Shown one piece after another: positions 2,902 to 48,214 of a stretch of 48,214 bases of DNA. The stretch is from a virus. The translations under genes and the position numbers were made by a program. Each line of letters begins with the position of its first letter. Position 1 is the stretch's first letter. Below the pieces are notes generated by a model that made no database searches, had not been told where the DNA came from, and was given only the letters and a program-made list of their open reading frames with translations. The stretch lies in IMG/VR virus record IMGVR_UViG_3300006131_000280; one strand, written 5' to 3'.

Positions 2902-3074
2902 ACAGAAAGCTTTATGGATGATCTTTTGAGTCATTATTTTACCCAGCAGCATTTTCATACTTCCATTTTAATTGATGGCATGATTTATGTTATTGGAAAT
3001 TGTTGGGAATATTTAGCAAAACTTTTTGTGAAGCTCACAAACATAATAAATTTTTAAATAGGAGGATTTTTATA

Positions 3075-3599
3075 ATGAAAAAAATATTATTACTTGCAGC
3101 CACAATATCACTGTCAACATACATGGGGCTCACTGCCTTTGCTGGCGAATGGAAACAAGATGCAAATGGTTACCAGTACGTAAATGATAATGGAGAATTA
3201 TTCTATAATGGATGGCAGTGGATTGATGGAAATAACGATGGAATTGCAGAATCATACTATTTCAACGAAACTGGATATTGCCTCCTGAACACAACTACTC
3301 CAGATGGCTTTGTTGTGAATTCCGATGGAGCCTGGGCCATAGACGGCATTGTTCAAACCAAATCCATCCGTACAGAAGAACCTGTATCTACTCAGACAGA
3401 AGCACCCACATCTACGAATAGCACAAACACATCAAGCCAGGAAACTGTTAATGTAGGCGATACAGTATATCTTCCAGCGTCTGGAGAAAAATATCACAAA
3501 ATTCCAAATTGTGGAAAAATGAACCCCGATAAGGCCCGCGCTGTTTCTGTCTCTGATGCGATAAAGAGAGGCTATCAGCCCTGTACAAAATGCTATTAA
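3075..3599 (+). CDS. Secreted protein with cell-wall-binding (choline-binding-type) repeats and a C-terminal Cys-rich motif
   Basis: ATG 3075 follows AGGAGG. Signal peptide MKKILLLAATISLSTYMGLTAFA. GW/YY-rich repeats. C-terminal YHKIPNCGK...QPCTKCY. Confidence 0.75.
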   Translation: MKKILLLAATISLSTYMGLTAFAGEWKQDANGYQYVNDNGELFYNGWQWIDGNNDGIAESYYFNETGYCLLNTTTPDGFVVNSDGAWAIDGIVQTKSIRTEEPVSTQTEAPTSTNSTNTSSQETVNVGDTVYLPASGEKYHKIPNCGKMNPDKARAVSVSDAIKRGYQPCTKCY

Positions 3600-3622
3600 T
3601 TCTGTGACTAAATAGAAATGCA

Positions 3623-3656
3623 AAAACCGCCTTCAGTTGGCGCTGAAAACGGTTTT
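3623..3656 (+). terminator. Hairpin terminator after the secreted-protein gene
   Basis: AAAACCGCCTTCAG-ttggcg-CTGAAAACGGTTTT, 14-position stem with one 2x2 internal loop. Confidence 0.55.
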
Positions 3657-3805
3657 ACATAGATTATTCCTGCCGGAATACTCTGGAAAGATATAAATTC
3701 ATCCAAACAAATTATATCATTCCCGGAGCGTCCTGGCAAGGGCGTATTTTTTATATACAAAAACCAGTTGCGGCATCGCAACCTGCAAATGAAAGGAATG
3801 ATATC

Positions 3806-5077
3806 ATGGGAGAACTCAGAACAAGAAAACGAGGAAGCAAATGGGAATACTCCTTCGAAGGAGCTCCGGTAAACGGAAAAAGAAAAAGTATATCAAAGTC
3901 TGGATTCCGGACGAAAGCGGAAGCCATTACTGCCGGAACATCAGCTATGAATCAATACAATAATTCTGGTTCCTGCTTTTCCCCAGCTGAATGTAGCATA
4001 TCCGATTATCTGGATTACTGGTTTGATAATTACTGCAAAGTGAACTTAAAGTATAATACTCAAATCGGCTATTTGCAGATCATTGAAAACCATCTGAAGC
4101 CGCGCTTCGGAATATACAAACTCAGGGCATTGACTACTGCGGCAATCCAGGAATACGTGAATGCCTTGAAACTCCAGGGACTGTCCAGAAACTCTGTGAA
4201 AGGTATTCTTTCCGTCCTTTCTGCATCATATGAATATGCCATCGAACCGCTAAATTACATTCAGGATAATCCCTGTCATCGTGTAAAAATACCAAAATTC
4301 GAAAAAAAACCGAAAGAGCGGTATATCATCACGCCGGAAGAGTTTAACCAAATCATCGCCAGATTCCAGGAAGGAAGCAGCTTCTATATTCCAATCATGA
4401 TTGGATATTACACCGGGCTCCGGATCAGCGAGGCCTTTGCGCTCACCTGGGAGGACATTGACTTAAAAAACAGAACTCTCACCGTCAATAAAACTGTAGT
4501 CAAACGGAATTATGGGGTTGACGTAAGAAAAGTTGCCAGTCAGAAGGGCAAGAAAGAAGAAAAGTCTGCGTGGTACTTTAGCACTCCGAAAACAGAAAGC
4601 TCCAACCGTACAATAAAATTCGGGGATGCCTTATATTCTGCCCTGAAACATGCACAAACCGTACAGAAAAAGAACCGGCTCCAGTATGGCGAGTATTATA
4701 CAGAGCATTACCTGAAACCTGAAAAGGACGAAAAAGGGAACACGATTTTCCGCATCATTCCTGTAGCACGCTGTGTTAATTGTGCCTTAAAACAGGTAGA
4801 TATGGTATGCGTCCGTGAGAATGGGGAATATATAAGCACGGATTCCATGAAATACTGTAACCGGGTCATTCATAATGAACTTAAGCTGGCTTTTGACTAC
4901 CATTCTCTTCGCCACACGCACGCGACGATATTAATTGAAAATGGCGCTGACATCAAAGATGTCCAGGCCAGGCTCGGACATTCTGATATCAGCACCACAC
5001 TGCAAATCTACACCCATGCAACGGACAAAATGTCCATGAAAAGTGTCGATATTTTTGAAAAGGCTGTCAATATCTGA
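3806..5077 (+). CDS. int: Tyrosine recombinase (phage integrase)
   Basis: N-terminal arm-binding-type segment ([11 protein letters not shown]...GFRTKAEA). Catalytic motifs [31 protein letters not shown]. Confidence 0.92.
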
Positions 5078-5080
5078 AAA
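4992..5080 (+). repeat. Direct repeat copy A (int 3' end)
   Basis: 89 nt matching 8737..8825. The first 53 nt are identical, followed by 5 mismatches in 36 nt. Confidence 0.9.
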
Positions 5081-5196
5081 ATGAAGCTTGTTCAAGACCT
5101 TAGATTGATAGTCGCCCTCGCCCCGAGACAACAGCCGTTTTTCCATCTTGTTTAATTTTCCATGTGAATCTCCATCCACTTGAAAATGAGTATAAA

Positions 5197-5227
5197 ATAT
5201 GCCATAGGTGGTTAACCTATGGCATAT
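5197..5227 (-). terminator. Terminator of the methyltransferase/GHKL operon
   Basis: ATATGCCATAGG-tggttaa-CCTATGGCATAT, 12-bp perfect stem. A T-rich tract follows on the minus strand (tttatactcatttt). Confidence 0.6.
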
Positions 5228-5316
5228 AAAAGAATATATAAATATTTTTTTATTGGTTTAAATTTTAGGCAGACAGAAATCGTCTTCCCTATAATAAGTT
5301 TATCAAGAGGTTGCTT

Positions 5317-5523
5317 ATGAAACAATATAAAACTACATGTATGTATGGCTATTCAATTTTGGGGGAATGCCCACCCAAATTAGATACTCAAACAAATTAT
5401 GTAATTATTGAACAATCTAGGTTTTTCCCACATTGTGTTATTATTCAACGGGCAGACGGTAAAATGTTTCAAGGTGAAAAAACTTGGATTGTTCCGCAAA
5501 GTAGCATATCAACCAATCTCTAA
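5317..5523 (+). CDS. Small hypothetical protein (68 aa), uncertain
   Basis: ATG 5317 lies 7 nt after AAGAGG. AT-rich. Its 3' end overlaps the convergent GHKL gene by 15 nt. Confidence 0.3.
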   Translation: MKQYKTTCMYGYSILGECPPKLDTQTNYVIIEQSRFFPHCVIIQRADGKMFQGEKTWIVPQSSISTNL

Positions 5524-7482
5524 TTCGTTAATAATATCACTCAATGTTGATATATTTTTATTTTGCTCCAAGAAATCACTATATAAATTTTGTGCATTTC
5601 TTAAAAGTTCATCATAATACATAATCCGACACTGGTAAGCTTTTAAGGCTTCTTTAGTAGCTTGATATACATCTTCATCATAATGTATTCCATCTAGGTG
5701 ATTCCCCAAGAGGACAATAATTTCAAATGGTTCAGGCTGATCTAAAATAGCCATTACTTTTTTTGTGGCAGAAAAATATTTATATACTTGGGTCGTTATT
5801 TCTTGTGATTTTACCGTCCTATCTCCTTTTTTTAATTCAATTATCAAATGCCTATTAGATGCTTTTTTATATCGAATATCCAGACGGGCATCTAATTCTT
5901 CTTGGGTGAGACCTGCATCTATAGTTTCAAATTGTGTTTTAAACGCTTGTTCTACGATTGGAGCTTCAGTTCCTCTATCCCATGAAGGATCAAGTAGCCA
6001 TAAATTTTTGCTCAAATGGTCTTGTATGACTTTTTCAAGGCTACCATCAGATACGACATCTTGCATTTTTCTGATAACAGCAAGACGCTCTTGCACAATT
6101 TGATAATACATAGTTGCTTCAATATCATCAAGTCGTCCTGCAACTTCTATAAATGTCGCAATATTTTCAGCAGAAATTTTTTCCAATTGGCTTAATTCAT
6201 TTTTTAATTTAAAAGACTCGAAAGCCAACACTCCATGCTTGAATAGTTCTTTTTTCTCTTCTTTTTCAACAGTTAACTGATTGATTTTACCGAATAATTT
6301 TTTTGCAGATCTTTTATCATCTCCTTTCAACTTGTTATACCAGTCGCTTACAACAACATATTTGCACGCCTCATCAACTCCACTAGCGCTTCTGGTTTCT
6401 TCCCAGTCGGTTCGAACTGAAGTAAGACTCTTTCTAACAAACTCTTTTAAAGCGATATAACGTTCATCGTCTTCAAAGAAATCCTGCCTGCTGCTTGTAG
6501 TTATATCTGCTTCATCGTCTAAATCTAAAAAATCCGCAGATAATTCTCCAAAAATATATTTTGAATATAGGGCGGTTGTTCCAATTTCAGAAAAAATATC
6601 TTCTTTTGCCATTTTCCCACGAACCATAATCACAATACGGTTTAAATTTTCATCATCATCTAGTTCCTTTGGCTCTGAGCAGGTAGCAATCCATCCTGTA
6701 ATGCGATAAGAAACTTCTCCAACCGTTATCATAGAGGGTAGTTCCTTTATAAGTTTAATTTTATCTGCTTTGGTTTGATTCTCCAAATCTTTTTTGAATT
6801 CATCAGGCTTATTCTCTGGAAGAAACATCCATACACATTGTGCTTTAGAGAGATAATTTCTATCAGATATGACTATTTCATCACCATTTATTGATACTTT
6901 AAAATCATGTTTTGCACCAATAATTGCAAATCTGCGAGCTAAACGCTGTCTTAAATGCGCCGCCAAAGAAGCAGTTCTTTTTTTCTTAAGATCATTTAAA
7001 ATAATTTTTGTACCATTCTCACAGAAAGTAATATTATCAGGTGATAACTCGGTAGGAAAATATGTATCGTTGGTTTTAATTGCCTCCTTCAAAGAATTGG
7101 TATCAATCTTAAAACCGTTAATTTCTCCATCTTTTTTAGAGTAAACCTCAACAACATTTGCAATTGAAAAAAGGGATAGCTTGCCAATTCCTTTTCTTCC
7201 CATTACTGGTCTATGAAGCATTGGTGACAGACCACTTTCACTACGTTTCTGATAACCTACAGTCAAATATTTATTGTTTATATCAGATAGGTTCATCCCA
7301 ATACCATTGTCAGTAATGGATATACTATCGCCATTAATTTCTATTAATACTTCTTGAGCATCTGCATCCCATGCGTTTGCAACTACTTCGGATAATACTG
7401 CAGAAGTATTGCTATAGAGATTTAATCCCAGATGATTTAATACCTGTAAATTTATAGACATTTGAAATTTTGGTTGATTCAT
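5509..7482 (-). CDS. GHKL (HATPase_c_3/MORC-MutL-type) ATPase fused to a C-terminal PD-(D/E)xK, DUF4263/Shedu-like nuclease domain
   Basis: N box SEVVANAWDA (aa 31-40), G1 DNGIGM (58-63), G2 GRKGIGKLS (95-103). C-terminal HLSKNLWLLDPSW...LDIRY(D535)...IIELKK(E549,K551)...QVYKY. GGGAGG RBS. ATGA overlap with the upstream methyltransferase. Confidence 0.8.
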   Translation of the reverse strand: MNQPKFQMSINLQVLNHLGLNLYSNTSAVLSEVVANAWDADAQEVLIEINGDSISITDNGIGMNLSDINNKYLTVGYQKRSESGLSPMLHRPVMGRKGIGKLSLFSIANVVEVYSKKDGEINGFKIDTNSLKEAIKTNDTYFPTELSPDNITFCENGTKIILNDLKKKRTASLAAHLRQRLARRFAIIGAKHDFKVSINGDEIVISDRNYLSKAQCVWMFLPENKPDEFKKDLENQTKADKIKLIKELPSMITVGEVSYRITGWIATCSEPKELDDDENLNRIVIMVRGKMAKEDIFSEIGTTALYSKYIFGELSADFLDLDDEADITTSSRQDFFEDDERYIALKEFVRKSLTSVRTDWEETRSASGVDEACKYVVVSDWYNKLKGDDKRSAKKLFGKINQLTVEKEEKKELFKHGVLAFESFKLKNELSQLEKISAENIATFIEVAGRLDDIEATMYYQIVQERLAVIRKMQDVVSDGSLEKVIQDHLSKNLWLLDPSWDRGTEAPIVEQAFKTQFETIDAGLTQEELDARLDIRYKKASNRHLIIELKKGDRTVKSQEITTQVYKYFSATKKVMAILDQPEPFEIIVLLGNHLDGIHYDEDVYQATKEALKAYQCRIMYYDELLRNAQNLYSDFLEQNKNISTLSDIINELEIG

Positions 7483-8603
7483 GGCTGTACCTCCCTATGT
7501 TCAGAAACGTATTCAAAATAAAGTCGTATTGCACGTCGAATTTGAGCACGTACAGACGGAACAATATCCTCAAACATGGATTCCTTATTTAATTTCTTTA
7601 AATAATATTCACAATCATCTGTGCCGAATTCTAAAATCCTTTTTGCACGACCTATTCTTGAAAGAGTATCTCCTGCTACTTCTGCAGAAAGTCTTTTTTC
7701 ATTCTTCAACCAATCAATAAACCGCAAGTTATGCAAATCGGTATTTCCTTTAATAAAGTGCATTAAACAAGTTGCTACATAATTAGCCAGGTTGACTGGA
7801 ACTGCATTTCCAATCATTTGTTCTGTTGAAGCAGATGAGTCATCCCAAATAAAACCAGGAGGAAAGGTTTGTATAAGGGAGCGTTCTAGGCAAGATAAGT
7901 TGCGTATTCCATCGGGAGCAATTACATCTCCATTATGCTTTTTATAGTTTCCTGGTTTAGGACGGTTAACGCCTCGTATTGTTGGAGAGGGCTCATCAAC
8001 AGAAAATATACCACGTCGTTTGTATGAACGAGGATGCCGATAATAATATTCTATTGACAAATCGTAATTTTCCTGTCGAAAGTATTCTCTTACTGTTAAA
8101 GGGAAAATGGACTGATTTGTTGATAACAAACCATCTAAAAAACTGTCTTGCCCATTTTTTAATCCAATACAAAAAAATCGCTTCCTCTTCTGAGGAACAC
8201 CGCAAAAACTAGCATCAAGAACTTTTTCTGTTAGCCCATACCCAGCCTCTTTAAAAATTACTCTTGCCTTTTTATATGCATCACTACTAGCTGCACGCTC
8301 CACATTTTCCATTACAAAATATTGGGGAGAAATTGCCTTTATTATTTTTGCATATGAAACAGTTAAATCTGCGCGATCTCCTTCAACTCTATTTCCTGCT
8401 CCAGAAAAATCTTGACAAGGAGGTCCCCCTATTATAATATCAGGATTATATTTTATGATATTCTGGACGGAAAGCTGTACATCTGAGAGGTCAATATCTT
8501 CAACCGGATGTGCGAAATTTTTCTTATAGCAAGAGATAGCAACATCCCAATGCTCAAATCCTGCCAAAATGTCAAATCCTGCTTTTTGAAAACCTAATGA
8601 CAT
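7479..8603 (-). CDS. DNA (cytosine-5) methyltransferase; the coding frame continues upstream to about 8645 without a canonical start
   Basis: Motif IV GGPPCQDFS, VI ENV, VIII QKRKRFF, X GNAVPV. Motif I (DLFCGCGG) is encoded in frame at 8604..8627, upstream of the first ATG. Confidence 0.85.
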   Translation of the reverse strand: MSLGFQKAGFDILAGFEHWDVAISCYKKNFAHPVEDIDLSDVQLSVQNIIKYNPDIIIGGPPCQDFSGAGNRVEGDRADLTVSYAKIIKAISPQYFVMENVERAASSDAYKKARVIFKEAGYGLTEKVLDASFCGVPQKRKRFFCIGLKNGQDSFLDGLLSTNQSIFPLTVREYFRQENYDLSIEYYYRHPRSYKRRGIFSVDEPSPTIRGVNRPKPGNYKKHNGDVIAPDGIRNLSCLERSLIQTFPPGFIWDDSSASTEQMIGNAVPVNLANYVATCLMHFIKGNTDLHNLRFIDWLKNEKRLSAEVAGDTLSRIGRAKRILEFGTDDCEYYLKKLNKESMFEDIVPSVRAQIRRAIRLYFEYVSEHREVQP

Positions 8604-8677
8604 TCCACCACAACCACAGAATAAATCTACAATGTTAATGTTGATCTCATCCTTTCCACCAGTCTATTTAATGGCTT

Positions 8678-8707
8678 ATTATAACATGCTGAAGTCCGTG
8701 AGCGCAA
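8678..8707 (-). promoter_or_regulatory. Putative promoter of the methyltransferase/GHKL operon
   Basis: On the minus strand: TTGCGC, 18-nt spacer, TGtTATAAT (extended -10). Confidence 0.5.
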
Positions 8708-8736
8708 TAAGATTTTCCCCTTATGGAAAATCATGT

Positions 8737-8825
8737 GCACCACACTGCAAATCTACACCCATGCAACGGACAAAATGTCCATGAAAAGTATTGACATTTT
8801 TGAAAGGGCTGTCAACATCTGAAAA
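8737..8825 (+). pseudogene. Integrase 3'-terminal fragment (last 28 codons plus stop), direct repeat copy B
   Basis: Encodes ...[28 protein letters not shown]-stop. Differs from int only by synonymous or conservative changes. No upstream integrase body. Confidence 0.85.
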
Positions 8826-9096
8826 TTCCGTTGACAAAACGTTGACAAAATCCAGTTTCGGGAGGACAAGACCTCCCGAATATCCTTATTTTATGCGGTT
8901 TAGCAGGCATACAGTCTCCACATGCACCGTTTGTAGCTACTTCTATCCAGAACATGTTAATTTATATTATAGCATGTCATATTATGTTTGTAAAATAAGC
9001 ATTCTTTAGGTACATGAAATCATTTTCAATTATACCTTTTTATTATTTTATATACTGATTTTTCCCCAATGTCGACAAATCGTTGACATTGACAAC
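8788..9096. promoter_or_regulatory. Putative attP region with repeated GTTGACA-type (arm-site-like) motifs
   Basis: Tandem CGTTGACAAAA at 8829..8839 and 8840..8850. TTGACATTTT near 8791, inverted GTTGACAG near 8809. GTCGACAAA, CGTTGACA and TTGACAAC at 9071..9096. These flank an AT-rich non-coding core downstream of the int end. Confidence 0.45.
8857..8880 (+). terminator. Hairpin after the integrase fragment
   Basis: TTCGGGAGG-acaaga-CCTCCCGAA, 9-bp stem, followed by T-rich sequence. Confidence 0.55.
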
Positions 9097-9274
9097 ATGA
9101 CTATACTGCAAACCGCCGTTACCTGTATTCTCCCCAGGCTTACTCCTGCCTCCAATTCAATTTCTGTTGCATCTTTTAGGAGCAGATAATTCTTGATTAT
9201 ATTGTAGGATATTTTGATGCGGCGGTTATACCCACTTAAAGCAAGAGAGCGGTGGCAAGTCCCGCTCTCTTGTT

Positions 9275-9430
9275 CTAATCCTCTAAATACTGCTGAATGT
9301 GTTCCAATACTCTGTCAATCTTGCTGTTTTTCTTCTCTATATCCTCGCTATCCCTTGCTTCTTTCAAGTCGTCTTTCACGAAGTTCATAAGAAGCTTCAT
9401 TTCTTTTTCGCTGATTGCCATTTCATCCAT
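9275..9430 (-). CDS. Small acidic hypothetical protein (51 aa, below the track cutoff)
   Basis: Hand translation: MDEMAISEKEMKLLMNFVKDDLKEARDSEDIEKKNSKIDRVLEHIQQYLED. GGAGG upstream. Followed by hairpin 9243..9271. Confidence 0.45.
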   Translation of the reverse strand: MDEMAISEKEMKLLMNFVKDDLKEARDSEDIEKKNSKIDRVLEHIQQYLED

Positions 9431-9540
9431 TACCTCCAACATTCTGTATTCTCCTTTCCGTTCATCAGATTTACTTGCCTCATCTGATAATACTATTATA
9501 AACTATATTTGGTTTATTGTCAATACTCTGATTAAACTTT

Positions 9541-9750
9541 TTATGGTTTATTTTCTACATATTTTATTATGTTTCCTGGCTGCATATCTAATAATTCACA
9601 AAGCTGATCTAATGTTTTTATACCTACCATTTCCCCTTTCCTTAATTTCTGCATAGCAGACTGACTAAGTACATTTTCCCTTAATATGCGAGTGCTATTA
9701 TACCCAGACTCTTTCAATGTTTCTATTACATCTATTTTATAAGTCAGCAT
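9541..9750 (-). CDS. XRE/Cro-C1-type HTH regulator (69 aa)
   Basis: MLTYKIDVIETLKESGYNSTRILRENVLSQSAMQKLRKGEMVGIKTLDQLCELLDMQPGNII is a typical small HTH_XRE layout. GGAGG RBS. Confidence 0.7.
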   Translation of the reverse strand: MLTYKIDVIETLKESGYNSTRILRENVLSQSAMQKLRKGEMVGIKTLDQLCELLDMQPGNIIKYVENKP

Positions 9751-9831
9751 GTACGAACCTCCTTTATTTAATTTTAATTTAATATTTAAAAAAAGTCAAG
9801 AAAAATAATCCAAAAAAAGTTTAAAAAGTCC

Positions 9832-9860
9832 TTGGCATTAAACTATTATTAGTTTATAAT
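9832..9860 (+). promoter_or_regulatory. Near-consensus sigmaA-type promoter
   Basis: TTGGCA(9832-9837), 17-nt spacer, TATAAT(9855-9860). Divergent from the HTH gene. Confidence 0.65.
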
Positions 9861-9892
9861 TAGACTTATCAAAGGAACGGAGGATATGGGAA

Positions 9893-10078
9893 ATGCTGAC
9901 TTTGGATGATAGCCAGTTAGAACAGGTTACTCCGGGTATGACGGTGAAGGAGATCCGGGAGATAAAGACATCACCGGCAAAAGAAATTCCGTATTTTGAA
10001 ATCCCGGGCCAAATCATTAAATGTTTTAGGCCAGTAATATACATCCCGTCCCTGCCGGGTAATGCAGGGAGAAAGTGA
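9893..10078 (+). CDS. Hypothetical protein (61 aa)
   Basis: Track ORF. GGAGG lies 9 nt upstream. First gene downstream of promoter 9832..9860. Confidence 0.5.
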   Translation: MLTLDDSQLEQVTPGMTVKEIREIKTSPAKEIPYFEIPGQIIKCFRPVIYIPSLPGNAGRK

Positions 10079-10085
10079 GAAGGGT

Positions 10086-10406
10086 ATGACGAGCGAAGAA
10101 AAATTATTACTTGAACGATATCAAAGCGATTTTGAAAAGAAAGATGGCCATTATGATGGGCGGAATATCTCCCCTGAAGGATTCGCCACAATTTGCAGAA
10201 TGAAAGACAGGACAAATGCCATGCTTGACAGACGCTTGCAAGCAGCCAAGGAGGTTATTGATTTAATTGCGGAGCGTGTTGGGATTAACCCGCAGGACAC
10301 CGGATTTTTCCTATACGCCCCAGATTATGATGATTCGTCTCCACTACTTAGAAAAATTGACGAATATTTCAGCCGAGGCGGTGACAAAGTAAAGATGAAA
10401 AAGTGA
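10086..10406 (+). CDS. Hypothetical protein (106 aa from internal ATG)
   Basis: Track ORF 10062..10406. ATG 10086 follows GAGAAGGG. Confidence 0.55.
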   Translation: MTSEEKLLLERYQSDFEKKDGHYDGRNISPEGFATICRMKDRTNAMLDRRLQAAKEVIDLIAERVGINPQDTGFFLYAPDYDDSSPLLRKIDEYFSRGGDKVKMKK

Positions 10407-10497
10407 ATAGATGAATTAGAGAATGAAAATCAGATATTACGGAAACTTATTGGAAAGTCTTAGTTGGAAAGCGGCGGAGAATGATCTCCGCCACTTT

Positions 10498-11295
10498 TTA
10501 CGCCACATACCATCGCTCCATGCCGCCTTTCCCTTTTGCATTCTCATGCCAGCAGGCGCCCTGGAGCTCTCCGGACTCCTCCAGATAGTACCAGTCTCCC
10601 GCCCCGGTCTTTTCGCCGTCCCACTGGACCCAACCAGTAAGCATATAACCGGATGCGCCAAACAGATACCAATGATGATCAATCAGTCTCCAGCACATCG
10701 CCGGCCAGGTGCCGTCCGCGTTCTGATACCACCAGCCATTGCCGTCCTTGTGCCATCCAGGCTCATACCCCGGTTCTTCTACCAGGCTCCAGTCTGGACG
10801 ACCATATCCGGCAATTCCAGCGTAGGAAAGGGCATAGGATTTTTCGCAGACTCCACCGCCGTTGGCCACCACTCTGGAGGCTCCACTAGTGTTACCTTCG
10901 ATGGTGTATACCCTGCCACCTGCCACGCGGACGACAATGCCGGTATGACAGATCCGGACAGAATTCTTAAAGAAAATCTGATCCCCCGGCTCCGGAGACG
11001 TATACCAACGGCCCTTGTTCTTGTAATACTGGGCAGAGGTGGGCGTGTAGGCGGAAAACCCGCCGCCGATCAGCTGCATGGCTTTCACCCTGCCGAACGC
11101 CTGCACATGGCACCAGTCCACAAACATATCACACCATGGTTGGCCCTGGAGGGACGGATACAGATCACGGGCATATTTGGTGTAGTTGGTGCTGCCGGCA
11201 TTGGCCGTCTTGCTGTCCAGATCCTTGTTGGATGCTTTTTCCAGATAGCCGATCTCAGTTCTGGCAATCTGGATTAACTTTTCTGCTGCTTTCAT
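10498..11295 (-). CDS. Endolysin: N-terminal CHAP-type amidase/peptidase plus C-terminal cell-wall-binding repeats
   Basis: QPWCDMFV (Cys) ... ICHTGIV (His) ... EGN. C-terminal GW/WY-rich repeats (GWHKDGNGWWYQNADGTW and similar). Confidence 0.85.
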   Translation of the reverse strand: MKAAEKLIQIARTEIGYLEKASNKDLDSKTANAGSTNYTKYARDLYPSLQGQPWCDMFVDWCHVQAFGRVKAMQLIGGGFSAYTPTSAQYYKNKGRWYTSPEPGDQIFFKNSVRICHTGIVVRVAGGRVYTIEGNTSGASRVVANGGGVCEKSYALSYAGIAGYGRPDWSLVEEPGYEPGWHKDGNGWWYQNADGTWPAMCWRLIDHHWYLFGASGYMLTGWVQWDGEKTGAGDWYYLEESGELQGACWHENAKGKGGMERWYVA

Positions 11296-11396
11296 AATGC
11301 ATTCCCCTTTCTTGAATTATGGGCGTAAAAGAACGCCCTTCGTTTGAAAGGCGTTCCGATTATCTTAATTATACTATTTTTGCTTTAATTCACCTC

Positions 11397-11425
11397 TTGG
11401 CAATACGTGTGGCACGTGTTATAAT
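11397..11425 (+). promoter_or_regulatory. Promoter of hicAB
   Basis: TTGGCA, 17-nt spacer, TATAAT. The spacer contains the direct repeat ACGTGT-GGC-ACGTGT. Confidence 0.65.
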
Positions 11426-11446
11426 ATATTTGTAAGGAAGTAGAAC

Positions 11447-11623
11447 ATGAAAGACAAAGACCTGCTAAAGCTTTTGAAGCAAAATGGATGGAGCGTAGTC
11501 AGAATCAACGGTAGCCACCATGTTCTTCAAAAAGATGGGAAAACCACAGTTGTTCCCTTACATGGCAAAGATGTTCCTATCGGCTTACTTAATAGTATTC
11601 TCAAGGAGGCAGGGCTGAAATAG
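11447..11623 (+). CDS. hicA: HicA-family mRNA interferase toxin (58 aa, below the track cutoff)
   Basis: Hand translation: MKDKDLLKLLKQNGWSVVRINGSHHVLQKDGKTTVVPLHGKDVPIGLLNSILKEAGLK. This is the classic HicA/YcfA pattern (GSHH...H.GK). Confidence 0.85.
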   Translation: MKDKDLLKLLKQNGWSVVRINGSHHVLQKDGKTTVVPLHGKDVPIGLLNSILKEAGLK

Positions 11624-11657
11624 CCCTCCTCATCTTAAACGATAAGGAGGTATCATT

Positions 11658-12038
11658 ATGTTGTTTGTGTATCCTGCCATCTTCCACAAAGAAGAGGGCT
11701 CCTACTGGGTTGAATTTCCCGATTTGGAAGGCTGCCATACTTATGGCAGTTCTATCAATGAAACTATGGAAGCAGCACAGGAAGCCTTAGCTGCTTATCT
11801 CCTCACCCTTTTAGAACAGGAAAAAGCAATTGCTTCTCCCTCAGATATCTCTTCCATTCATGCAGATGACGGTTTCTCCTCGCTTGTATCTTGCGACATC
11901 AACCAATATAAAGATACAAAAGCTGTGAAAAAGACGCTGACTATACCATCATGGCTGAATGACCGTGCCATTTCTATGGGGATTAATTTTTCCCAAGTCC
12001 TTCAGGATGCATTACTTGCTAAACTCCAGACCCATTGA
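11658..12038 (+). CDS. hicB: HicB-family antitoxin with C-terminal RHH-like DNA-binding tail
   Basis: YPAIFHKEEGSYWVEFPDLEGCHTYGSSINETMEAAQEAL is a typical HicB N-domain. Immediately downstream of hicA with an AGGAGG RBS. Confidence 0.85.
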   Translation: MLFVYPAIFHKEEGSYWVEFPDLEGCHTYGSSINETMEAAQEALAAYLLTLLEQEKAIASPSDISSIHADDGFSSLVSCDINQYKDTKAVKKTLTIPSWLNDRAISMGINFSQVLQDALLAKLQTH

Positions 12039-12044
12039 ACCTGT

Positions 12045-12081
12045 CTGGCCACTTATCAGCACGAAAAGTGGCCAGATTTTT
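12045..12081 (+). terminator. Rho-independent terminator of hicAB
   Basis: CTGGCCACTT-N11-AAGTGGCCAG followed by TTTTT. Confidence 0.7.
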
Positions 12082-12106
12082 ATGTGATACCATTGCGACA
12101 TCGCAA

Positions 12107-12604
12107 CTATTGTTCGTCAGAAATTTCCACGCCGGCGTGAATCAGCTTTTCCGTGACTGCCAGCCCTTTAATCAGGAAATCCGGCACGTTGCATCCGCAC
12201 TCCACCAGATTCTCTAAAATGCTGCGGATCTCATTCACCAGCAACGAAGCCAATGTAAACCAGCCAAGAAGCGTCAGAAATTTCAAATTCACTCCCAGCA
12301 CATCCTGGCCCAAATGGATAAAAAGAGAGGGAATTAAAAAAGCCACCAGGATAATTACCCAGTAGCCCATTTTCTTTAAGATTCCATTCAATCCTGCTCT
12401 GCTGCTCTCCTTTCCGAGCCTTCTCGATTTATACCACCCCGTCATCCAATCCAGGACATTACACAGAAGATATCCAGCAAAGACATACCAGTAAATGCCA
12501 AAAACAGCTGTCATGATAGTCACTGCTGCTCCAACTACTGCATTATAACGATCAATAAAACTTTTTGCCATGTTCAAAACCTCTCTTTTCATTCTTTCAT
12601 CCAT
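12107..12604 (-). CDS. Holin (phage_holin_4 / toxin-secretion holin type)
   Basis: Multiple TM segments. LDWMTGWYKS...GILKKMGYW...NEIRSILENLVECGCNVP matches the family pattern. The start may be internal (MAKSF...). Confidence 0.8.
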   Translation of the reverse strand: MDERMKREVLNMAKSFIDRYNAVVGAAVTIMTAVFGIYWYVFAGYLLCNVLDWMTGWYKSRRLGKESSRAGLNGILKKMGYWVIILVAFLIPSLFIHLGQDVLGVNLKFLTLLGWFTLASLLVNEIRSILENLVECGCNVPDFLIKGLAVTEKLIHAGVEISDEQ

Positions 12605-13230
12605 ATACTCTCTGTTCCATCCGCTCCAGGTTCCCAGACGTTATAATCAACAAGGGATTCCCAGGTCTCATTTTTATGTTTTACTTTATCTCCAGTCATG
12701 TAAGCATTTTCAGAAGAAGGTGATTCCCATTCAGGAATCATATCTGGATCGGGAATAAGGATTTTAGCAAACAGCGACGGAGATAGTTCCGGTATCCAGC
12801 CTTCCTGTGAGGTATGATCCTGTAAAACCTTATAAAGGCAATTTATATACCGCACTCTCTCTCCTGCTTTGTATCTTACCTCTTCAGGCGACCAGCTCTT
12901 GTACAGAGACGGCACCTGTACTGCCTGTTCGTCGGTGAAGTTTTCAGCCAGGAATCCACAGGCAAGGGAAACAGGCGCTACACTGCCTGTGATAAGCTGA
13001 TTGACGCCTTCAGAAAGATCGTCGATCTTCCTGCTGATGTGATCCAGTTCGGTCCCGGGTAATTCCTCAAACCTGGCAGCCGGTTCGCTGCCGGAAAGAT
13101 CAACTCCAAAAACGCTGCACCCCTCCGGGACATCTGTTACAATCCCGTTCAGTCCGACAGGAAGCGTATCTTCTCCGTATGTGACATTCCATATTCTTCC
13201 AGAACTGTCATAGATAATTAATGCATTCAT
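12589..13230 (-). CDS. Tail-fibre-associated protein (XkdW position) with two C-terminal carbohydrate-binding-like repeats
   Basis: Lies between the fibre and the holin. Repeats YKAGERVRYINCLYKVLQDHTSQEGW and YMTGDKVKHKNETWESLVDYNVWEPG. Confidence 0.6.
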   Translation of the reverse strand: MNALIIYDSSGRIWNVTYGEDTLPVGLNGIVTDVPEGCSVFGVDLSGSEPAARFEELPGTELDHISRKIDDLSEGVNQLITGSVAPVSLACGFLAENFTDEQAVQVPSLYKSWSPEEVRYKAGERVRYINCLYKVLQDHTSQEGWIPELSPSLFAKILIPDPDMIPEWESPSSENAYMTGDKVKHKNETWESLVDYNVWEPGADGTESIWMKE

Positions 13231-13242
13231 TTATCATTTCTC

Positions 13243-14892
13243 CTATATAAACTCAAGTTCCTTTATCTTTCCGCCCTTGTATGAAAGCTGGCTTAAACTG
13301 CCGTTCTCTTTGTAACTCCTACTGAAAAAAATGCTAAAAGTAAAGAACGATGGTTTTCCATAACTGCTTACCAGAGAGTTATAAAAACTTTCTCTGTTGG
13401 AAAAATCAACGGTATATGTTCCACTTGCAGTCATACGAAACAAGCTTGCAATACCATGTGCTACGTTGCCAGTCGATTGGAAACCCACATCGAATTCAAA
13501 GTATGCATCGGCATCTCCACGCTCAAAAACAAGCCTTATCTTTTTATATGTATTAAATAAGTCGAGACCAACTGGCTTCGTTGTACGGAATGGGGACACG
13601 TATTCGTTCCCGGATCCACTATAAGTCGCGTTTGTAACACCAAAATATTCGTTAGTAACACTCCCATATACAGTACTGGGATACCATATTAATCCATATG
13701 GATTATGGTCTTTTGCAAAGAACATGCCGGGTTTATGCAGCGTTTTCGCAGACAGATTATGGCTTGTCCCATTGCCAAGATTCGTAGTGTAACTGACACA
13801 GGTAAAGTAGTACGTAGTATTTGCACTCAGCCCGGTTATGTCCACATAGTTATTTCCCCCCGCCTGGCTGGGATTCGTTCCGGCTCCGGTATACTTCCGT
13901 GTTCCGCCGCTCACTCCCGGGGTTCCAGATGTACTTATCTGAATAAAAACACCCTGCCACGGACCCTTTGATGGATTTTTCCAACTGATCCTTATGGAGC
14001 TTGATGAGAGAGCGGCTGCACTAAAAGAAATTGCTGATTGGACTACAAGAGTTCCGGTGATCTTGGTACCATTGACCCAGGCCGTTTTCCCGGACAGAAT
14101 ATTGCCGGCGGCCGCAGTCGCCGAGGTTTGTGATGCCAGGCTGTTTGCTGTCACCTTTCCAGAGCCATTATGATAACCTGCGGGTATGGTATAGGAGCCT
14201 CCGCAGTTTAACGCCGAGGTCTTCGCGCCCTGGTTAGCCATACTTCCTGTGATTTTAGACCCATTTACCCATGCCTGATACCCTGTTAGAATCTGAGCCG
14301 CTGCTGCTGCCGTTTTTCCAGAATCCACTCCGGTCTGACTGGTCAGGCTGTTTGCCGTCACCTTTCCAGAACCGTTATGATATCCGGCCGGTATCGTGTA
14401 ACTGCCTCCGCAGTTTAGCGCCGAGGTTTTTGCGCCTTGGTTCGTCATGGTTCCTGTTCGTTTGGCTCCATCCTTCCAGTATGTCTTTCCAGACAAAACG
14501 TCCCCATCTGCGGCTGTAGCTCCTCCGGTCTGACTGGCCAAGCTGTTTGCTGTCACTTTTCCAGAGCCATTATGATAACCGGCGGGTATGGTATAGGAAC
14601 CTCCCGCATTAAGACCTTCAGGAGATACTGCTCCACGATTTACCATTTCTCCTGTTCGTTTAGTCTTTGCATCCGTACTATAATATGTCTTACCAGCAAG
14701 TACCTGGGAATCTGAAGCAGTTCCTGTCAGCTCCAGTGTCCCTGCAACCGCTTCATCATTACTGTCCGATGTTACTGCGGTCTTTCCCTTTAAAAGATCA
14801 TTGGCTGTCGCTGTCAGCTCATCCGAGGACACGCCGCCTCCTCCCTTTACCGCGATCAAAACATCGCTCACACACTCACCCCCTTCAGACAA
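13243..14892 (-). CDS. Tail fibre protein with internal tandem repeats and an FN3-like domain
   Basis: Three GGSYTIPAGYHNGSGKVTANSL units. FN3-like IRISWKNPSKGPWQGV...TTYYFTCVSY. Confidence 0.8.
   Translation of the reverse strand: MSEGGECVSDVLIAVKGGGGVSSDELTATANDLLKGKTAVTSDSNDEAVAGTLELTGTASDSQVLAGKTYYSTDAKTKRTGEMVNRGAVSPEGLNAGGSYTIPAGYHNGSGKVTANSLASQTGGATAADGDVLSGKTYWKDGAKRTGTMTNQGAKTSALNCGGSYTIPAGYHNGSGKVTANSLTSQTGVDSGKTAAAAAQILTGYQAWVNGSKITGSMANQGAKTSALNCGGSYTIPAGYHNGSGKVTANSLASQTSATAAAGNILSGKTAWVNGTKITGTLVVQSAISFSAAALSSSSIRISWKNPSKGPWQGVFIQISTSGTPGVSGGTRKYTGAGTNPSQAGGNNYVDITGLSANTTYYFTCVSYTTNLGNGTSHNLSAKTLHKPGMFFAKDHNPYGLIWYPSTVYGSVTNEYFGVTNATYSGSGNEYVSPFRTTKPVGLDLFNTYKKIRLVFERGDADAYFEFDVGFQSTGNVAHGIASLFRMTASGTYTVDFSNRESFYNSLVSSYGKPSFFTFSIFFSRSYKENGSLSQLSYKGGKIKELEFI
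14038..14703 (-). repeat. In-frame tandem repeats (about 195-207 nt units, 3 full plus 1 partial) inside the tail fibre gene
   Basis: Protein periodicity of 65 and 69 aa between GGSYTIPAGY motifs. Boundaries are approximate. Confidence 0.7.
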
Positions 14893-15638
14893 ATCCGAAA
14901 TGCCACAGTAGGCTTTTTATGCAAACAGCCCAGAGTCAGCTTTCCGTCTTCTAAAATTTTTGAGTAACTAATCATCGAAGCCATTTTATCCCACATCTTC
15001 GCATCTGCAGCCGTTGTTTCTTCCGACACTGCTGACCAGATCTCTGCTGGATCGCCAACCTTCAATCCAGCAACCGCAATCTCCTGAGTATACGGGGCCG
15101 TTTCCGTCCAAAACGCCGGAACCAAAACTGTTACCGTTCTGCGAAGGGTTCCCAGTTCCTTCCGAACGTCCTGTATCTCCTGTACTGTAATCGTTCCTGC
15201 TGGATTCACTGACACTGCAATGTCCGCCACCTGTGATACTGCCAGCTGGATATTATAAACAAAAGAAGATGGAGCAACGCCATTATAAGCCGGAACCTGA
15301 TCCGGTGTCTCTGCCCCCGATATTGAAAACAAAACCTCTGTATCTCCATCCATTGCGTACAATCCAATATTTTGTGTCAGGTAAGGTATCAGAATATTTT
15401 CATTTCCAAACATCGCACGCACACTGATGAAAGAATCACCTGTAACCCATACATCTGTTGGCAAAACACGTTGCTTCACTCCTTCAAGGACTGCCATTCC
15501 TTCAAAATCTGTCCCATCCGGATAGATATAATCAGAAGTACATACATGGGAAAACTGAATTATCTGTTCCCCTGCAACCGCCCTTGCCAGCATCATTCTT
15601 CCTGCGTTAGTAATGATTGCTTTTCTATAAACACCCAT
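14868..15638 (-). CDS. Tail fibre / tail-collar-type protein (XkdV position)
   Basis: N-terminal ITNAGRMMLARAVAGEQIIQFSHVCTSD resembles the DUF3751 tail-collar fibre N-terminus. Confidence 0.6.
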   Translation of the reverse strand: MGVYRKAIITNAGRMMLARAVAGEQIIQFSHVCTSDYIYPDGTDFEGMAVLEGVKQRVLPTDVWVTGDSFISVRAMFGNENILIPYLTQNIGLYAMDGDTEVLFSISGAETPDQVPAYNGVAPSSFVYNIQLAVSQVADIAVSVNPAGTITVQEIQDVRKELGTLRRTVTVLVPAFWTETAPYTQEIAVAGLKVGDPAEIWSAVSEETTAADAKMWDKMASMISYSKILEDGKLTLGCLHKKPTVAFRICLKGVSV

Positions 15639-15648
15639 ATGCTCTCCT

Positions 15649-16170
15649 TTAAATTGTCTGAATACAAATATTTGAGACGACTCCCCCTATATAAATCCCT
15701 CCGCCAACGTCATTCGTGACCTGATGATTTGCCGTCACCTCCATGTGTGCCGGAACAACATCCCAAATCAGGCTGTACAGCAAATCAACAGCCCCGTATC
15801 GGCTGGATGTAACCAGTACAAAAAGAGTACTGGCAACTGGATCCACTCGGAGCGTATAGTCTGCTCCGAACAAGCCAGTAAGACGGCTGCGGAGAAAACC
15901 AATAGAAAAAGGCGGAATAATGTTAAATTGCTGCAGAATCCGCTGCCTCCGGTATTCCAATGTGTCCCCTAGCTTGTAAGTCAGACCAAACAATTCTTCA
16001 TACGTCTTAATTGTGGCAGCATCCGCAGTCTGGACAAAACAATTTGCCTTTACCAGCCCAATGTTTTTCTCCAGTATATCCACAGCAGCGCCATGCGCCT
16101 TCATGATCTGCTCAAACTCCAAAACAGGCCGGAAATACTCTGGAAGAATGTCCATAAGATTAACTGCCAT
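15649..16170 (-). CDS. Baseplate protein, XkdU / DUF2313 (Mu gp48-like)
   Basis: LPEYFRPVLEFEQIM...YRRQRILQQF pattern. Follows the baseplate J gene. Confidence 0.65.
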   Translation of the reverse strand: MAVNLMDILPEYFRPVLEFEQIMKAHGAAVDILEKNIGLVKANCFVQTADAATIKTYEELFGLTYKLGDTLEYRRQRILQQFNIIPPFSIGFLRSRLTGLFGADYTLRVDPVASTLFVLVTSSRYGAVDLLYSLIWDVVPAHMEVTANHQVTNDVGGGIYIGGVVSNICIQTI

Positions 16171-17311
16171 TGATTACCACCTTCCCCAATTCAGGAATTT
16201 CCTGGAGCGTTGCATTTTCTGTCAGTATCAAATCCTTCCCAGAGCCATTAATCGTAATATTGGTCACATTGACAACCTCATCAATTCCAAGAATGGCAAC
16301 AGCAATGCGAGAAATATAGACCGATACGGCATACTCAATTTTCTGCCCTTTGATGGGAGTTCCCCAGGTTTGACACACTGAATCCAGATATGCCTGAATT
16401 TTTTCCATTATCTGTTCTCGATAGATGTCCTCTGCCCCAGCCGCCACGCCCTCAATAAATTGGATTTCGCATGATACATTCAGGGATAAAATCCGGGCAG
16501 TTACAATCTTCACCGCTGCCCCAATCGGCGCCAGTCCGTACCCATTTGGCGACGGAAAATCTTCGCCGGCCTCTGCTGGACAGATATATTCCTGTACCTT
16601 GGCAATTAGCCCATTATCTGCCGGCTTAAGCCGGCTGTTTAGAATGCTGCACAGAACAGTTCCCCCGCCCTGCCAGGCCGGGTAAATCTGCACTGCGCCA
16701 ACTCCCGCAATGGCGAGAATCGCCGTCCGATAGGAAACCATGTTCCCGCCAAATGCCTGCACGCCAAAAGTAGCAAAATATCTGGCCCTCAGAGAAGCAT
16801 CATCTTCCTCGTCACTTCCAGATAAAAGAATCTCACCGATTGTGGCTGAAGTAATGCCGTTTACCGCCGTAACAGGAAGAATGTTCCCTGTGTAGCTGTT
16901 CCCAACCGTCCCTGGAGTCTTGCAGGTCATTTCATAAATATAGGAGTTATCTGTTTTTTCTTTGAGCCGCTCTACGATAAACAATGCCGAATTTACGCCG
17001 TTAATGGTCTTAAAGAGGGCTCCTTCAGGCACCACGGTATTAAAGATTCCCTTGCGTTTTGCTGCCACTGCATCTTTTCGGTACACTCCGCGCTCTGCAC
17101 AGATAAAATCCAGCGACTGCCCCACGGCAGTATTAGCATATGCATTTTGCTGAACCTGATCCATCAGCATATAAAGCCCTTCCAGATACCATGCTACCGG
17201 CCCCAGGGCAGTCTGTATGATGCTCCCCTCCCTGGTATCTATGTCTTTTGGTACTTTATCTAACATGCTCTTTAAAATCGCCGCCTGCGTGTATCCCTCA
17301 AAATTAATCAT
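16160..17311 (-). CDS. Baseplate J-like protein (XkdT)
   Basis: 383 aa. Position and general similarity to the baseplate J family. Confidence 0.7.
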   Translation of the reverse strand: MINFEGYTQAAILKSMLDKVPKDIDTREGSIIQTALGPVAWYLEGLYMLMDQVQQNAYANTAVGQSLDFICAERGVYRKDAVAAKRKGIFNTVVPEGALFKTINGVNSALFIVERLKEKTDNSYIYEMTCKTPGTVGNSYTGNILPVTAVNGITSATIGEILLSGSDEEDDASLRARYFATFGVQAFGGNMVSYRTAILAIAGVGAVQIYPAWQGGGTVLCSILNSRLKPADNGLIAKVQEYICPAEAGEDFPSPNGYGLAPIGAAVKIVTARILSLNVSCEIQFIEGVAAGAEDIYREQIMEKIQAYLDSVCQTWGTPIKGQKIEYAVSVYISRIAVAILGIDEVVNVTNITINGSGKDLILTENATLQEIPELGKVVINGS

Positions 17312-17715
17312 ACTGCCATCTCCTCCCGAATTGTCCCAAATACCGTTATCACATCAAAGGCACAATGAAGGCTTCCGCTCCTTTCTTCAAATACAAAATT
17401 TTCAGCAGACAGAATCCGCCTGTCGACAGAGAAAGCATCAAGAATCCGGCGCGGCAGCTCACTCACGATAAAAGCGTATTCTTCTCCCACCAGCCCTTCC
17501 AGTTCGCTGCCAAAATTGCTCGTATAAATCTGCCAGTGATAACGCTCATTCTGTAAAATAATCTCCACTGCCTGGCGCATGGCATCCAGCCCGCTGTCCA
17601 TTCGGGAAACCTGTTTCGATGTCCAGTCAATAATAAATGTGTTCGTTGGCTGAGCCGCATATTTTAATTCTGTCCTCAGATCAACATTCTCAGGTAATAT
17701 TGACATACCACACAC
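17308..17715 (-). CDS. Baseplate wedge protein, XkdS / DUF2634 (gp25/W-like)
   Basis: IDWTSKQVSRMDSGLDAMRQAVEIILQNERYHWQIYTSNFGSEL. ATGA-type coupling with neighbouring genes. Confidence 0.65.
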   Translation of the reverse strand: MCGMSILPENVDLRTELKYAAQPTNTFIIDWTSKQVSRMDSGLDAMRQAVEIILQNERYHWQIYTSNFGSELEGLVGEEYAFIVSELPRRILDAFSVDRRILSAENFVFEERSGSLHCAFDVITVFGTIREEMAV

Positions 17716-17721
17716 ACCCCC

Positions 17722-18033
17722 TTATAACTTTGACAGAATAATGTACCTCTGTCCGTGGGATACCCGCAGCATCAAAACCTTGTCTCCAGCCTTTAGACTT
17801 TCATGGACCTGGACTGTGCCTCCGGCGCCTCCTTCAACATTAACGATCCTTTCTTTTACTTCACTAGTCAGGATAAGAGCCGCATTGGGAATGAACGGCC
17901 TCGATACATCTGTTTGTATCGACAGAGGGGAGACAGAAGTGACGGTCCCTGTTTCCATCTCCGCCATCCTTAATCCTTCCACGGTTTTCTGCACTATTTT
18001 CTGAATAACTCCCAAAAAACTCGCATCAGACAA
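17722..18033 (-). CDS. XkdR / DUF2577-like small baseplate/spike protein
   Basis: 103 aa, at the conserved position between the hub and wedge genes. Confidence 0.55.
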   Translation of the reverse strand: MSDASFLGVIQKIVQKTVEGLRMAEMETGTVTSVSPLSIQTDVSRPFIPNAALILTSEVKERIVNVEGGAGGTVQVHESLKAGDKVLMLRVSHGQRYIILSKL

Positions 18034-48154: not shown

Positions 48155-48214
48155 CTGTTTTTTTCACCTCCATTTACTCCTTCTGCTACTCTCTTACTTA
48201 ACTCCACAATCTTC
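48138..48214. repeat. Terminal direct repeat, identical to 1..77
   Basis: Exact 77-nt match to the window start. Confidence 0.95.

Follow-up and report, generated by a model that had tools for sequence, protein, structure and literature searches.

In this study, which was based on a 48,214-nt stretch of viral DNA (IMG/VR record IMGVR_UViG_3300006131_000280, referred to below as the window) and on its comparison with related phage and bacterial loci, we found that a complete Type II restriction-modification (R-M) unit lies at the junction of the integrase gene, int, and the attachment site, attP, of a temperate phage, where it is bracketed by two 89-nt copies of the int 3' end. We consider it most probable, at roughly 0.7, that this unit was captured by illegitimate joining at int/attP with a long target duplication and that it was then spread by homologous recombination. 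This reading is carried by direct observations, namely the anatomy of the insert, two sibling phages with an empty site, a truncated donor gene at the left joint, the integrated and circular forms of the phage and a block that is identical in different int backgrounds, while the joining mechanism is one that we infer. The phage genome was assembled as a circle: the window contains 48,137 unique bases and a terminal repeat of 77 nt (1-77 = 48138-48214). The starting point was a description made from the letters of the window alone (the original prediction), the claims of which are discussed together with the results that bear on them. The coordinates of the features are collected in Table 1.

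The duplicated integrase tail and its cassette-free counterparts

According to a repeat finder, the window holds just four families of long direct repeats, and one of these is the 89-nt repeat, whose copy A (4992-5080) and copy B (8737-8825) are identical at 84 of the 89 positions (94%). Both the duplication and the distribution of its differences had been proposed in the original prediction, and the repeat finder and the pairwise alignment agreed with it: homology sets in abruptly at 4992/8737, runs for 53 nt without a mismatch, includes five mismatches in the final 36 nt and ends right after TGAAAA. When read in the int frame from copy A to copy B, the changes are GTC>ATT (V>I, two bases in one codon), GAT>GAC (synonymous), AAG>AGG (K>R) and AAT>AAC (synonymous), with the stop codon retained; all of them are synonymous or conservative. 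Assuming random placement over the 89 nt, the chance that all five mismatches would fall within the last 36 nt is (36/89)^5 = 0.011. Because copy A supplies residues 396-423 of Int, including the presumed catalytic Tyr402 (LQIYTH), the int gene is intact; that Tyr402 is the nucleophile is presumed from the conserved C-terminal motif of the tyrosine recombinases. Int matched the Pfam families PF00589 (95 bits, residues 175-408), PF14659 and PF14657, the arm-binding match to the last scoring 27.6 bits with a cutoff of 22.3, and its homologues likewise have 423 aa. An exact look-up of the window Int protein returned no record, and the relatives were obtained by homology search instead.

Through this search, two cassette-free sibling phages (L062 and L069) were reached, whose Int belongs to the same 90%-identity cluster as that of the window and is 99% identical to it in the case of L062. 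The DNA of L062 matches the window over 3243-5080 at 99.35% and over 8737-18822 at 99.95%, and that of L069 is identical to it over 3947-4990 and 8796-13594, with 98.2% for the aligned sequence right of the repeat. Left of the repeat, the int body of the siblings is 99.3-100% identical to that of the window where aligned. In both siblings, a single int tail is joined directly to the sequence that starts at 8826 in the window, i.e., the two CGTTGACAAAA units, the 9-bp hairpin and CCTTATTTTATGCGG. The comparison with cassette-free relatives in which int runs into this sequence, which had been suggested as a check, was therefore positive. The distant relatives that were aligned (int 73-88% at the amino acid level) gave the same picture, as their int ends straight in GTTGTCAAA-type repeats, a hairpin and CCTTATTTTAyGCGG, which resembles the sequence after copy B and not the one after copy A. 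The proposal that the ancestral int end corresponds to copy B together with the sequence that follows it thus found support in the siblings as well as in the distant relatives.

The single tail of the siblings also permits the history of the two copies to be examined. It is identical to copy A at 85 of the 89 positions and to copy B at 86 of the 89. Copy A differs from it at 5047, 5061 and 5071 and copy B at 8790 and 8795, and both differ from it at 5005/8750, where the cassette-free tail has CAG and both copies have CAA. At the five variable positions, every base of the cassette-free tail is that of either copy A or copy B (G, T, T, G and C, in this order). The outgroup tails (L059, L060 and L032) have the cassette-free bases at four of these five positions, the fourth position being the one that varies among the outgroups, and the cassette-free tail looks like an ancestral state. 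These observations bear on the alternative that the cassette is ancestral and that L062 and L069 are deletion derivatives, which arose by recombination between copies A and B. Direct repeats of 89 nt with a perfect 53-nt stretch are a substrate for deletion, and the presence of A- or B-type bases alone at the variable positions would fit such an event. However, the G, T, T, G, C pattern would need three switches within 36 nt, the CAG at 5005 would have to come from two copies that both have CAA, and the agreement with the outgroups speaks for an ancestral tail. Moreover, all of the more distant relatives are without the insert, the cassette has a truncated gene of foreign origin at its left end as well as a foreign composition. 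We therefore consider an origin of the siblings by deletion to be very improbable.

When the int ends of 36 relative loci were each compared with themselves, a second copy of the int tail was revealed in L039 only, and no other insert of the cassette kind was present among them, i.e., the site is not a recurrent hotspot among the relatives that were examined. In a motif scan of all of the loci, the spacing between tail and core was approximately 100 nt wherever both were found. The second copy of L039 (5330-5484, Lacrimispora defluvii) is a decayed int tail with arm repeats and core, which is 76% identical over 157 nt. An intact int follows 1.5 kb downstream of it, complete with a tail, arm and core of its own that adjoin the host uracil-5 methyltransferase gene. 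The decayed copy appears to be left over from a tandem or older element, and its geometry is unlike that of the window. The region downstream of int is variable in another way in L059, which has the nearest Int outside of the window cluster (P0002, 90% at the amino acid level): at 9272-10760, this Int is directly followed by a 129-aa open reading frame (ORF) and by the gene for a 287-aa GerE/sigma-70 region 4 protein, and neither arm repeats nor a core could be recognised in any part of the 17-kb locus.

The restriction-modification cassette and its origin

The insert between the two copies (5081-8736, 3,656 bp) is a complete Type II R-M unit that is composed of a 5-methylcytosine (m5C) methyltransferase gene, a GHKL restriction enzyme gene, a 68-aa ORF and a DUF5720-like stub. 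The original prediction had listed only a methyltransferase/GHKL operon; both of these genes are present and form an R-M pair, but the 68-aa ORF and the stub have to be added to them. It is the assignment of the GHKL protein to the BbrUII/HgiDII family of restriction enzymes that identifies the operon as a Type II R-M system. This protein scored 769 bits against the NCBIfam equivalog NF050001 ('BbrUII/HgiDII family restriction enzyme'), which has a cutoff of 550, and matched the PADLOC model REase_II with E = 2e-99; it consists of an N-terminal GHKL ATPase domain (Pfam HATPase_c_3) and a C-terminal domain of unassigned fold. Its partner matched PF00145 with 196 bits and the PADLOC model MTase_II with E = 5e-119. 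No recombinase was detected in the insert in the Pfam, PADLOC and NCBIfam searches, which is in line with what had been expected from the sequence.

A similar layout is known for R.HgiDII, which consists of a GHKL domain and a C-terminal domain of unassigned fold (PMC2441816), and M.HgiDII was described as the m5C enzyme for GTCGAC (PMC5867850). The window unit resembles the HgiDII/BbrUII systems (SalI isoschizomers, GTCGAC) in passing the family model and in having both the N-terminal GHKL domain and an m5C methyltransferase partner. Unlike those systems, it has an additional, convergent 68-aa ORF and a methyltransferase start that is seemingly non-ATG. By analogy with the family, the specificity of the unit is probably GTCGAC. 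The genome has two GTCGAC sites with 4.5 +/- 1.9 expected, which does not amount to a significant avoidance. One of the two (9071-9076) is located in the putative P' arm repeats of attP.

The reading frame of the methyltransferase continues upstream of its first ATG (8604-8636, minus strand) and encodes motif I (DLFCGCGG) there; no ATG, GTG or TTG is present between this motif and the preceding stop codon. The start is therefore probably a non-ATG codon near 8627-8636, and an ATT or ATC after the GGAAAGGA Shine-Dalgarno sequence seems likely; the same upstream frame is found in the non-phage copies L063, L065 and L070. The 68-aa ORF was called as a gene in all of the R-M loci seen, with 65-68 aa across the contexts, and its protein is conserved in L063, L065 and L070. 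It had no match in Pfam, PADLOC or NCBIfam, and is possibly a regulator. Upstream of the methyltransferase gene, the extended -10 element TGTTATAAT is kept in the non-phage cassette copies and seems to provide the unit with a promoter of its own; it was not among the matches of the promoter scan. We also considered copy B as a promoter of the R-M genes (TTGACA-17-AATACT, 8815-8787 on the minus strand, with the B-specific G>A at 8790 improving the -10 box). Such a promoter is not needed since the cassette keeps TGTTATAAT, and the resemblance may be coincidental.

The AT-richness of 5081-8736, which had been noticed by eye, was confirmed by the computed windowed GC and tetranucleotide profiles. 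The GC content of the cassette is 34.7%, compared to 44.9% in the whole genome and 42.8% in int. It is approximately the lowest-GC 3.66-kb window, with 0.35% of the windows being as low, and the lowest window that does not overlap with it has 38.2%. The tetranucleotide distance from the genome is also the greatest for the cassette (0.38, with a mean of 0.20 and a standard deviation of 0.05). However, the phage DNA to the right of the cassette (8826-9900, 34.0% GC) is as AT-rich as the cassette itself, and the GC step is thus sharp at the left edge of the cassette only, while the right edge is unmarked. Further to the right, the gene for a CHAP/choline-binding endolysin (10500-11250) forms a GC peak (56-57%) adjoining the AT-rich attP region, which again speaks for a mosaic origin.

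Close homologues of the restriction enzyme (94-96% at the amino acid level) were found in contigs of three contexts that are unrelated to the phage. In these contexts, the cassette DNA from 5081/5084 to 8707/8725 is retained at 89-92.5% nucleotide identity, and none of them has homology to the int tail. The first context is an element that resembles an integrative and conjugative element (ICE) with HTH_17, DUF5720, DUF6017, Toprim and LPD1 genes (L063 and L064), the second is a locus adjoining cell-wall protein genes (L065-L068) and the third is a locus that also has a Vsr gene and a second m5C methyltransferase gene (L070). The DUF5720-like frame runs beyond the phage junction in L063, where it is a full DUF5720 gene of 173 aa, and in L065, and the nucleotide similarity among these donor-type contexts extends past the left phage joint in L063, L065 and L070. 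The left joint is thus an arbitrary cut inside a DUF5720-like gene, which argues that the phage captured the fragment by illegitimate joining; no microhomology of more than 1-2 nt can be read at this joint. On the right side, the similarity of L063/L064 and L065-L067 to the phage and to one another is lost within approximately 10 nt, at 8714-8725, and the L070 contig stops at 8707. Because this divergence lies upstream of the conserved TGTTATAAT element, the unit seems to bring its own promoter with it.

Searches in other collections returned no further occurrences. A megablast of 3000-10500 against GenBank phages gave no match, the restriction enzyme was not found in the IMG/VR viral contigs and neither was the right-end pattern of the cassette. 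DNA-pattern scans of metagenomes for tails joined to the arm and for the right end of the cassette were likewise negative, and these collections evidently do not hold close relatives of the window; neither an intact int that has an A- or B-type tail but no cassette nor a closer donor was found in these scans. An Rfam scan of 3000-10500 (E <= 0.1) yielded nothing.

The attachment site, the arm sites and the spread of the block

The attachment site was located by comparing the integrated and excised forms. With the cassette, the integrated form was found beside a host gene for an RlmD-like uracil-5 RNA methyltransferase in L021, L022, L024, L026, L028, L029 and L031, the last of which is from the isolate Lachnospiraceae bacterium 45-P1. 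The excised form, in which the cassette is joined to the lysis side of the phage, is represented by the window, L023, L027 and L030. The occurrence of both forms indicates that the cassette-bearing phage is still active. The similarity of the integrated contigs to the window ends at 8924 in L021, L024, L026, L028, L029 and L031 and at 8930 in L022. The called host gene ends at 8597 of L021, which is 8886 in the window, and the host stop codon corresponds to window 8886-8888. Upon integration, the phage thus supplies a replacement end (36 nt and the stop codon) to the host RlmD-like gene. We place the attachment core approximately within the identity block 8886-8924; this block lies approximately 60-100 nt to the right of copy B and is conserved in relatives. 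This gene also harbours the cassette-free relative L060 as a prophage, in which 64 nt separate the stop codons of int and of the host gene.

The original prediction had placed attP at the cluster of GTTGACA repeats. Repeats are indeed located there and are probably arm-type integrase-binding sites, but the core itself lies further to the right. The assignment as arm-type sites was made because Int has an arm-binding domain and because the heptamers flank the core, with four of the seven genomic copies being located at 8810-9088 on either side of it. Repeats equivalent to the CGTTGACAAAA units are present in relatives. The 9-bp-stem hairpin that was predicted after copy B was borne out with nine pairs at 8857-8880; a hairpin occupies the equivalent place in relatives, and it is the ancestral terminator of int and, in the lysogen, of the host gene. 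One GTTGACA heptamer lies within copy B (8810-8816, minus strand), and its counterpart in copy A is destroyed by a synonymous C>T at 5071, which suggests that the P arm may extend into the end of int; in that case, both functions would have survived thanks to the duplication.

The proximity of the insert to attP (within approximately 100 nt), the flanking direct repeats and the arm-type heptamer in copy B may point to site-specific insertion, by the phage integrase or another recombinase, at a secondary att site in the int tail. In such a case, the repeats would be the crossover site or the insert would encode its own recombinase; however, the block shared with the host (8886-8924) is outside of the repeat and, as described above, no recombinase is encoded. 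In addition, neither repeats of this type nor att-like ends accompany the cassette in its other locations, the left joint interrupts a gene and a repeat of 89 nt is far longer than a typical crossover region. We give this explanation hardly any credence.

Adjoining attP, a gene pair encoding a helix-turn-helix protein (69 aa) and a 55-aa protein (9275-9750) constitutes a mosaic module that is also found at the ends of unrelated phages (L071, L074 and L078), one of which has a serine recombinase and an AcrIC5-like gene. Since the 55-aa gene near the other phage end belongs to this module of unrelated phages, it gave no second prophage junction.

The block itself is remarkably uniform. In the ten cassette-bearing loci that were compared, 4992-8880 is without a single difference, while their int bodies have up to 37 differences (~3%) and the neighbouring phage genes are wholly different. 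An identical block in differing int backgrounds is what spread by homologous recombination would produce, and the block, including both repeats, appears to have been moved in this way into no fewer than three phage backgrounds. The changes that distinguish copy A from copy B thus go back to the earlier, unsampled history of the block. They may reflect later divergence or allele exchange, or an event that joined two slightly different co-resident phages. Break-associated hypermutation was also considered, since the two repeats (2 x 89 nt) depart from the cassette-free allele at seven positions and the flanks (~5.8 kb) at none, but was dropped because 4992-8880 was imported and the flanks are an invalid clock.

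Taken together, we propose the following course of events. The R-M unit would have been cut out of an ICE or genomic-island context along with the first 22 codons of the neighbouring DUF5720-like gene and joined, by illegitimate and non-site-specific recombination, into the boundary between int and attP in a temperate Lachnospiraceae phage. Its joints would be separated by 89 bp of the target, the left one just past the int stop codon and the right one at codon 396, so that the last 89 bp of int became duplicated. The duplication would make the insertion viable: copy A would keep Int at its full length, including the segment with the catalytic tyrosine, and copy B would keep the original sequence beside the arm-type repeats, the hairpin and the core, leaving attP intact. 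The block of tail A, R-M genes, tail B and arm would then have entered several related phages that share the int/att module by homologous recombination, with homology provided by int on one side and by the stretch of tail B, arm and core on the other. In a lysogen, the block would be placed at the prophage end beside the host rlmD-like gene, behind the bidirectional hairpin, and be expressed from its own promoter. It could restrict incoming DNA and methylate the host and phage DNA, probably at GTCGAC as judged from the enzyme families. R-M systems are known to be able to stabilise their carrier by post-segregational killing, from which the prophage may benefit here.

Several points weigh against this capture with duplication. 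Copies A and B match imperfectly, with all five mismatches in the 3' 36 nt (p ~0.01), and each of them departs from the cassette-free allele, so that a plain duplication would need a further step. No donor of more than 92.5% nucleotide identity was found, hence the right junction (8726-8736) cannot be dissected. The cassette loci were mostly retrieved via an identical restriction-enzyme protein, which creates a bias toward an invariant block; L031, which was found through int, is also identical across it. Finally, the expression, activity and specificity of the unit and the role of copy B in attP were deduced from sequence.

A rival explanation, which corresponds to one of the two routes offered in the original prediction (recombination within the int 3' end), is a Campbell-type entry, in which a circle with the R-M genes and a related int tail was integrated by a single crossover in the 53-nt identity, copy A then being recipient-left/donor-right and copy B donor-left/recipient-right. 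The sharp switch from 53/53 identity to five mismatches in 36 nt fits such an event, as does the synonymous or conservative nature of all of the differences, which two live alleles would be expected to show; in principle, direct repeats would also allow a cassette between them to loop out as such a circle. However, the set of differences from the sibling allele (5047, 5061 and 5071 in copy A, 8790 and 8795 in copy B and the shared 5005/8750) cannot be produced by one crossover into that allele. Because the three non-phage contexts have no int tail and the left joint cuts a gene, the first capture would have been illegitimate anyway. A Campbell-type entry may still have involved an earlier, unsampled recipient allele, and we regard it as unlikely overall. 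The original prediction, which favoured a gain of the cassette by recombination within the int 3' end or by insertion there with the int frame restored, thus stands in that the insert is foreign and int is restored by copy A, but a single crossover in the 53-nt identity alone is insufficient.

Assuming capture with duplication, the int tail may be more than a scar. If the P arm overlaps the int 3' end, only an insertion that duplicates this segment would be viable, and the package of tail A, R-M genes, tail B and arm could sweep through phages that share the int/att module as a hitch-hiker without a recombinase, carrying its own homology handles. This proposal is a tentative one, which we would rather doubt than defend at present.

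Table 1. Features of the int/attP region of the window and of the cassette within it
Feature	Position	Strand	Remark
int, 423-aa tyrosine integrase with N-terminal arm-binding domain	3806..5077	+	Pfam
Copy A of the 89-nt repeat	4992..5080	+	Functional int 3' end, stop codon and AAA; repeat finder, alignment
Truncated DUF5720-like gene, first 22 codons (MEKRLLSRGEGDYQSKVLNKLH)	5146..5081	-	Left end of the captured fragment, cut at the int junction
13-bp-stem hairpin inside the cassette	5197..5227	.	Terminator-like on the minus strand
Conserved 68-aa ORF	5317..5523	+	Convergent with the restriction gene, overlaps its 3' end
Restriction endonuclease, BbrUII/HgiDII family, 657 aa	5509..7482	-	NCBIfam, PADLOC, Pfam
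C5-cytosine DNA methyltransferase	7479..8636	-	First ATG at 8603; PF00145, PADLOC
Putative extended -10 promoter element (TGTTATAAT)	8678..8686	-	Upstream of the methyltransferase gene; read from sequence
Right end of the cassette	up to 8736	.	Sequence …CCCCTTATGGAAAATCATGT; right-joint sequence GGAAAATCATGT
Copy B of the 89-nt repeat	8737..8825	+	Non-coding remnant of the int 3' end, presumed part of the attP P arm; alignment
Two perfect tandem CGTTGACAAAA units	8829-8850	+	Putative arm-type sites, P arm
9-bp-stem hairpin, six G-C pairs	8857-8880	.	Terminator-like in both directions
Attachment identity block	8886..8924	-	Last 36 nt and stop codon of the host RlmD-like (uracil-5) RNA methyltransferase gene
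Further TTGACA-type repeats (GTCGACAAATCGTTGACATTGACAACA)	9071..9100	+	Putative P' arm sites; one GTCGAC site inside

Relation to known systems

An insertion of R-M genes with a long target duplication is not without precedent (Nobusato et al. 2000). When the criteria of Furuta, Abe and Kobayashi (2010, PMC2853133) were applied, the insert was found to contain R and M homologues, to be shorter than 20 kb and without mobility genes (3,656 bp) and to be flanked by a direct repeat of more than 30 bp (89 nt, 84/89); an empty site that aligns with both copies was found in close relatives (L062 and L069, flanks 98.2-100%). The slightly imperfect repeats (e.g., 44/46 in a published case, PMC2853133) and the deviant GC content are further similarities. 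The window differs from those cases in that the target is a phage and not a chromosome, in that the duplicated part is the phage's own int 3' end beside attP, in that the repeat differences are clustered at one end and in that the block with its repeats is identical in several phage backgrounds. The window adds a well-documented case to a mode of R-M mobility that is already known, and does not represent a new kind of system. It extends this mode beyond the bacterial genomes surveyed in PMC2853133 to an active temperate phage and its int/attP junction. As such, it is a clear natural case of a defence system without mobility genes entering a temperate phage with the integration module spared, and it illustrates the subsequent spread as a fixed block among related gut Lachnospiraceae phages. 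The isolate Lachnospiraceae bacterium 45-P1 (contig JBCLRB010000021), which carries the element, offers a tractable system for studying the overlap of the attP arm with int and the stability of repeat-flanked cargo.

Two other comparisons are informative. Prophage morons and defence cargo occur at the int-attP end of temperate phages, examples being the P2/P4-like defence hotspots and phage-borne R-M systems. Like such cargo, the window cassette is autonomous, AT-rich, predicted to be transcribed independently, located at the prophage end beside int and absent from siblings. Unlike the hotspots, which usually show plain presence or absence between conserved genes, the joint in the window is inside int and was repaired by duplication. 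The attachment region, on the other hand, is of the lambda type: Int has a predicted arm-binding N-terminus, heptamers that are putative arm-type sites flank a core that was mapped by the integrated and excised forms, int is transcribed toward attP and integration takes place in the 3' end of a host gene. The ancestral int stop is ~65 nt from the core block.

Three further features were observed elsewhere in the window. A HicA/HicB toxin-antitoxin pair (11447-12038) lies between the endolysin and holin genes and is also present in the cassette-free siblings. In the early region, a 59-nt direct repeat (188-246 / 995-1053, 85% identical) has an ATG at the end of each copy together with a GGAGA that resembles a ribosome-binding site, and a part of this repeat also matches L010. 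Finally, three units of ~128 nt with a spacing of ~200 nt (80% and 61% identical) are found at 14137-14666, in the gene for a 549-aa fn3-domain protein of the tail/baseplate region.

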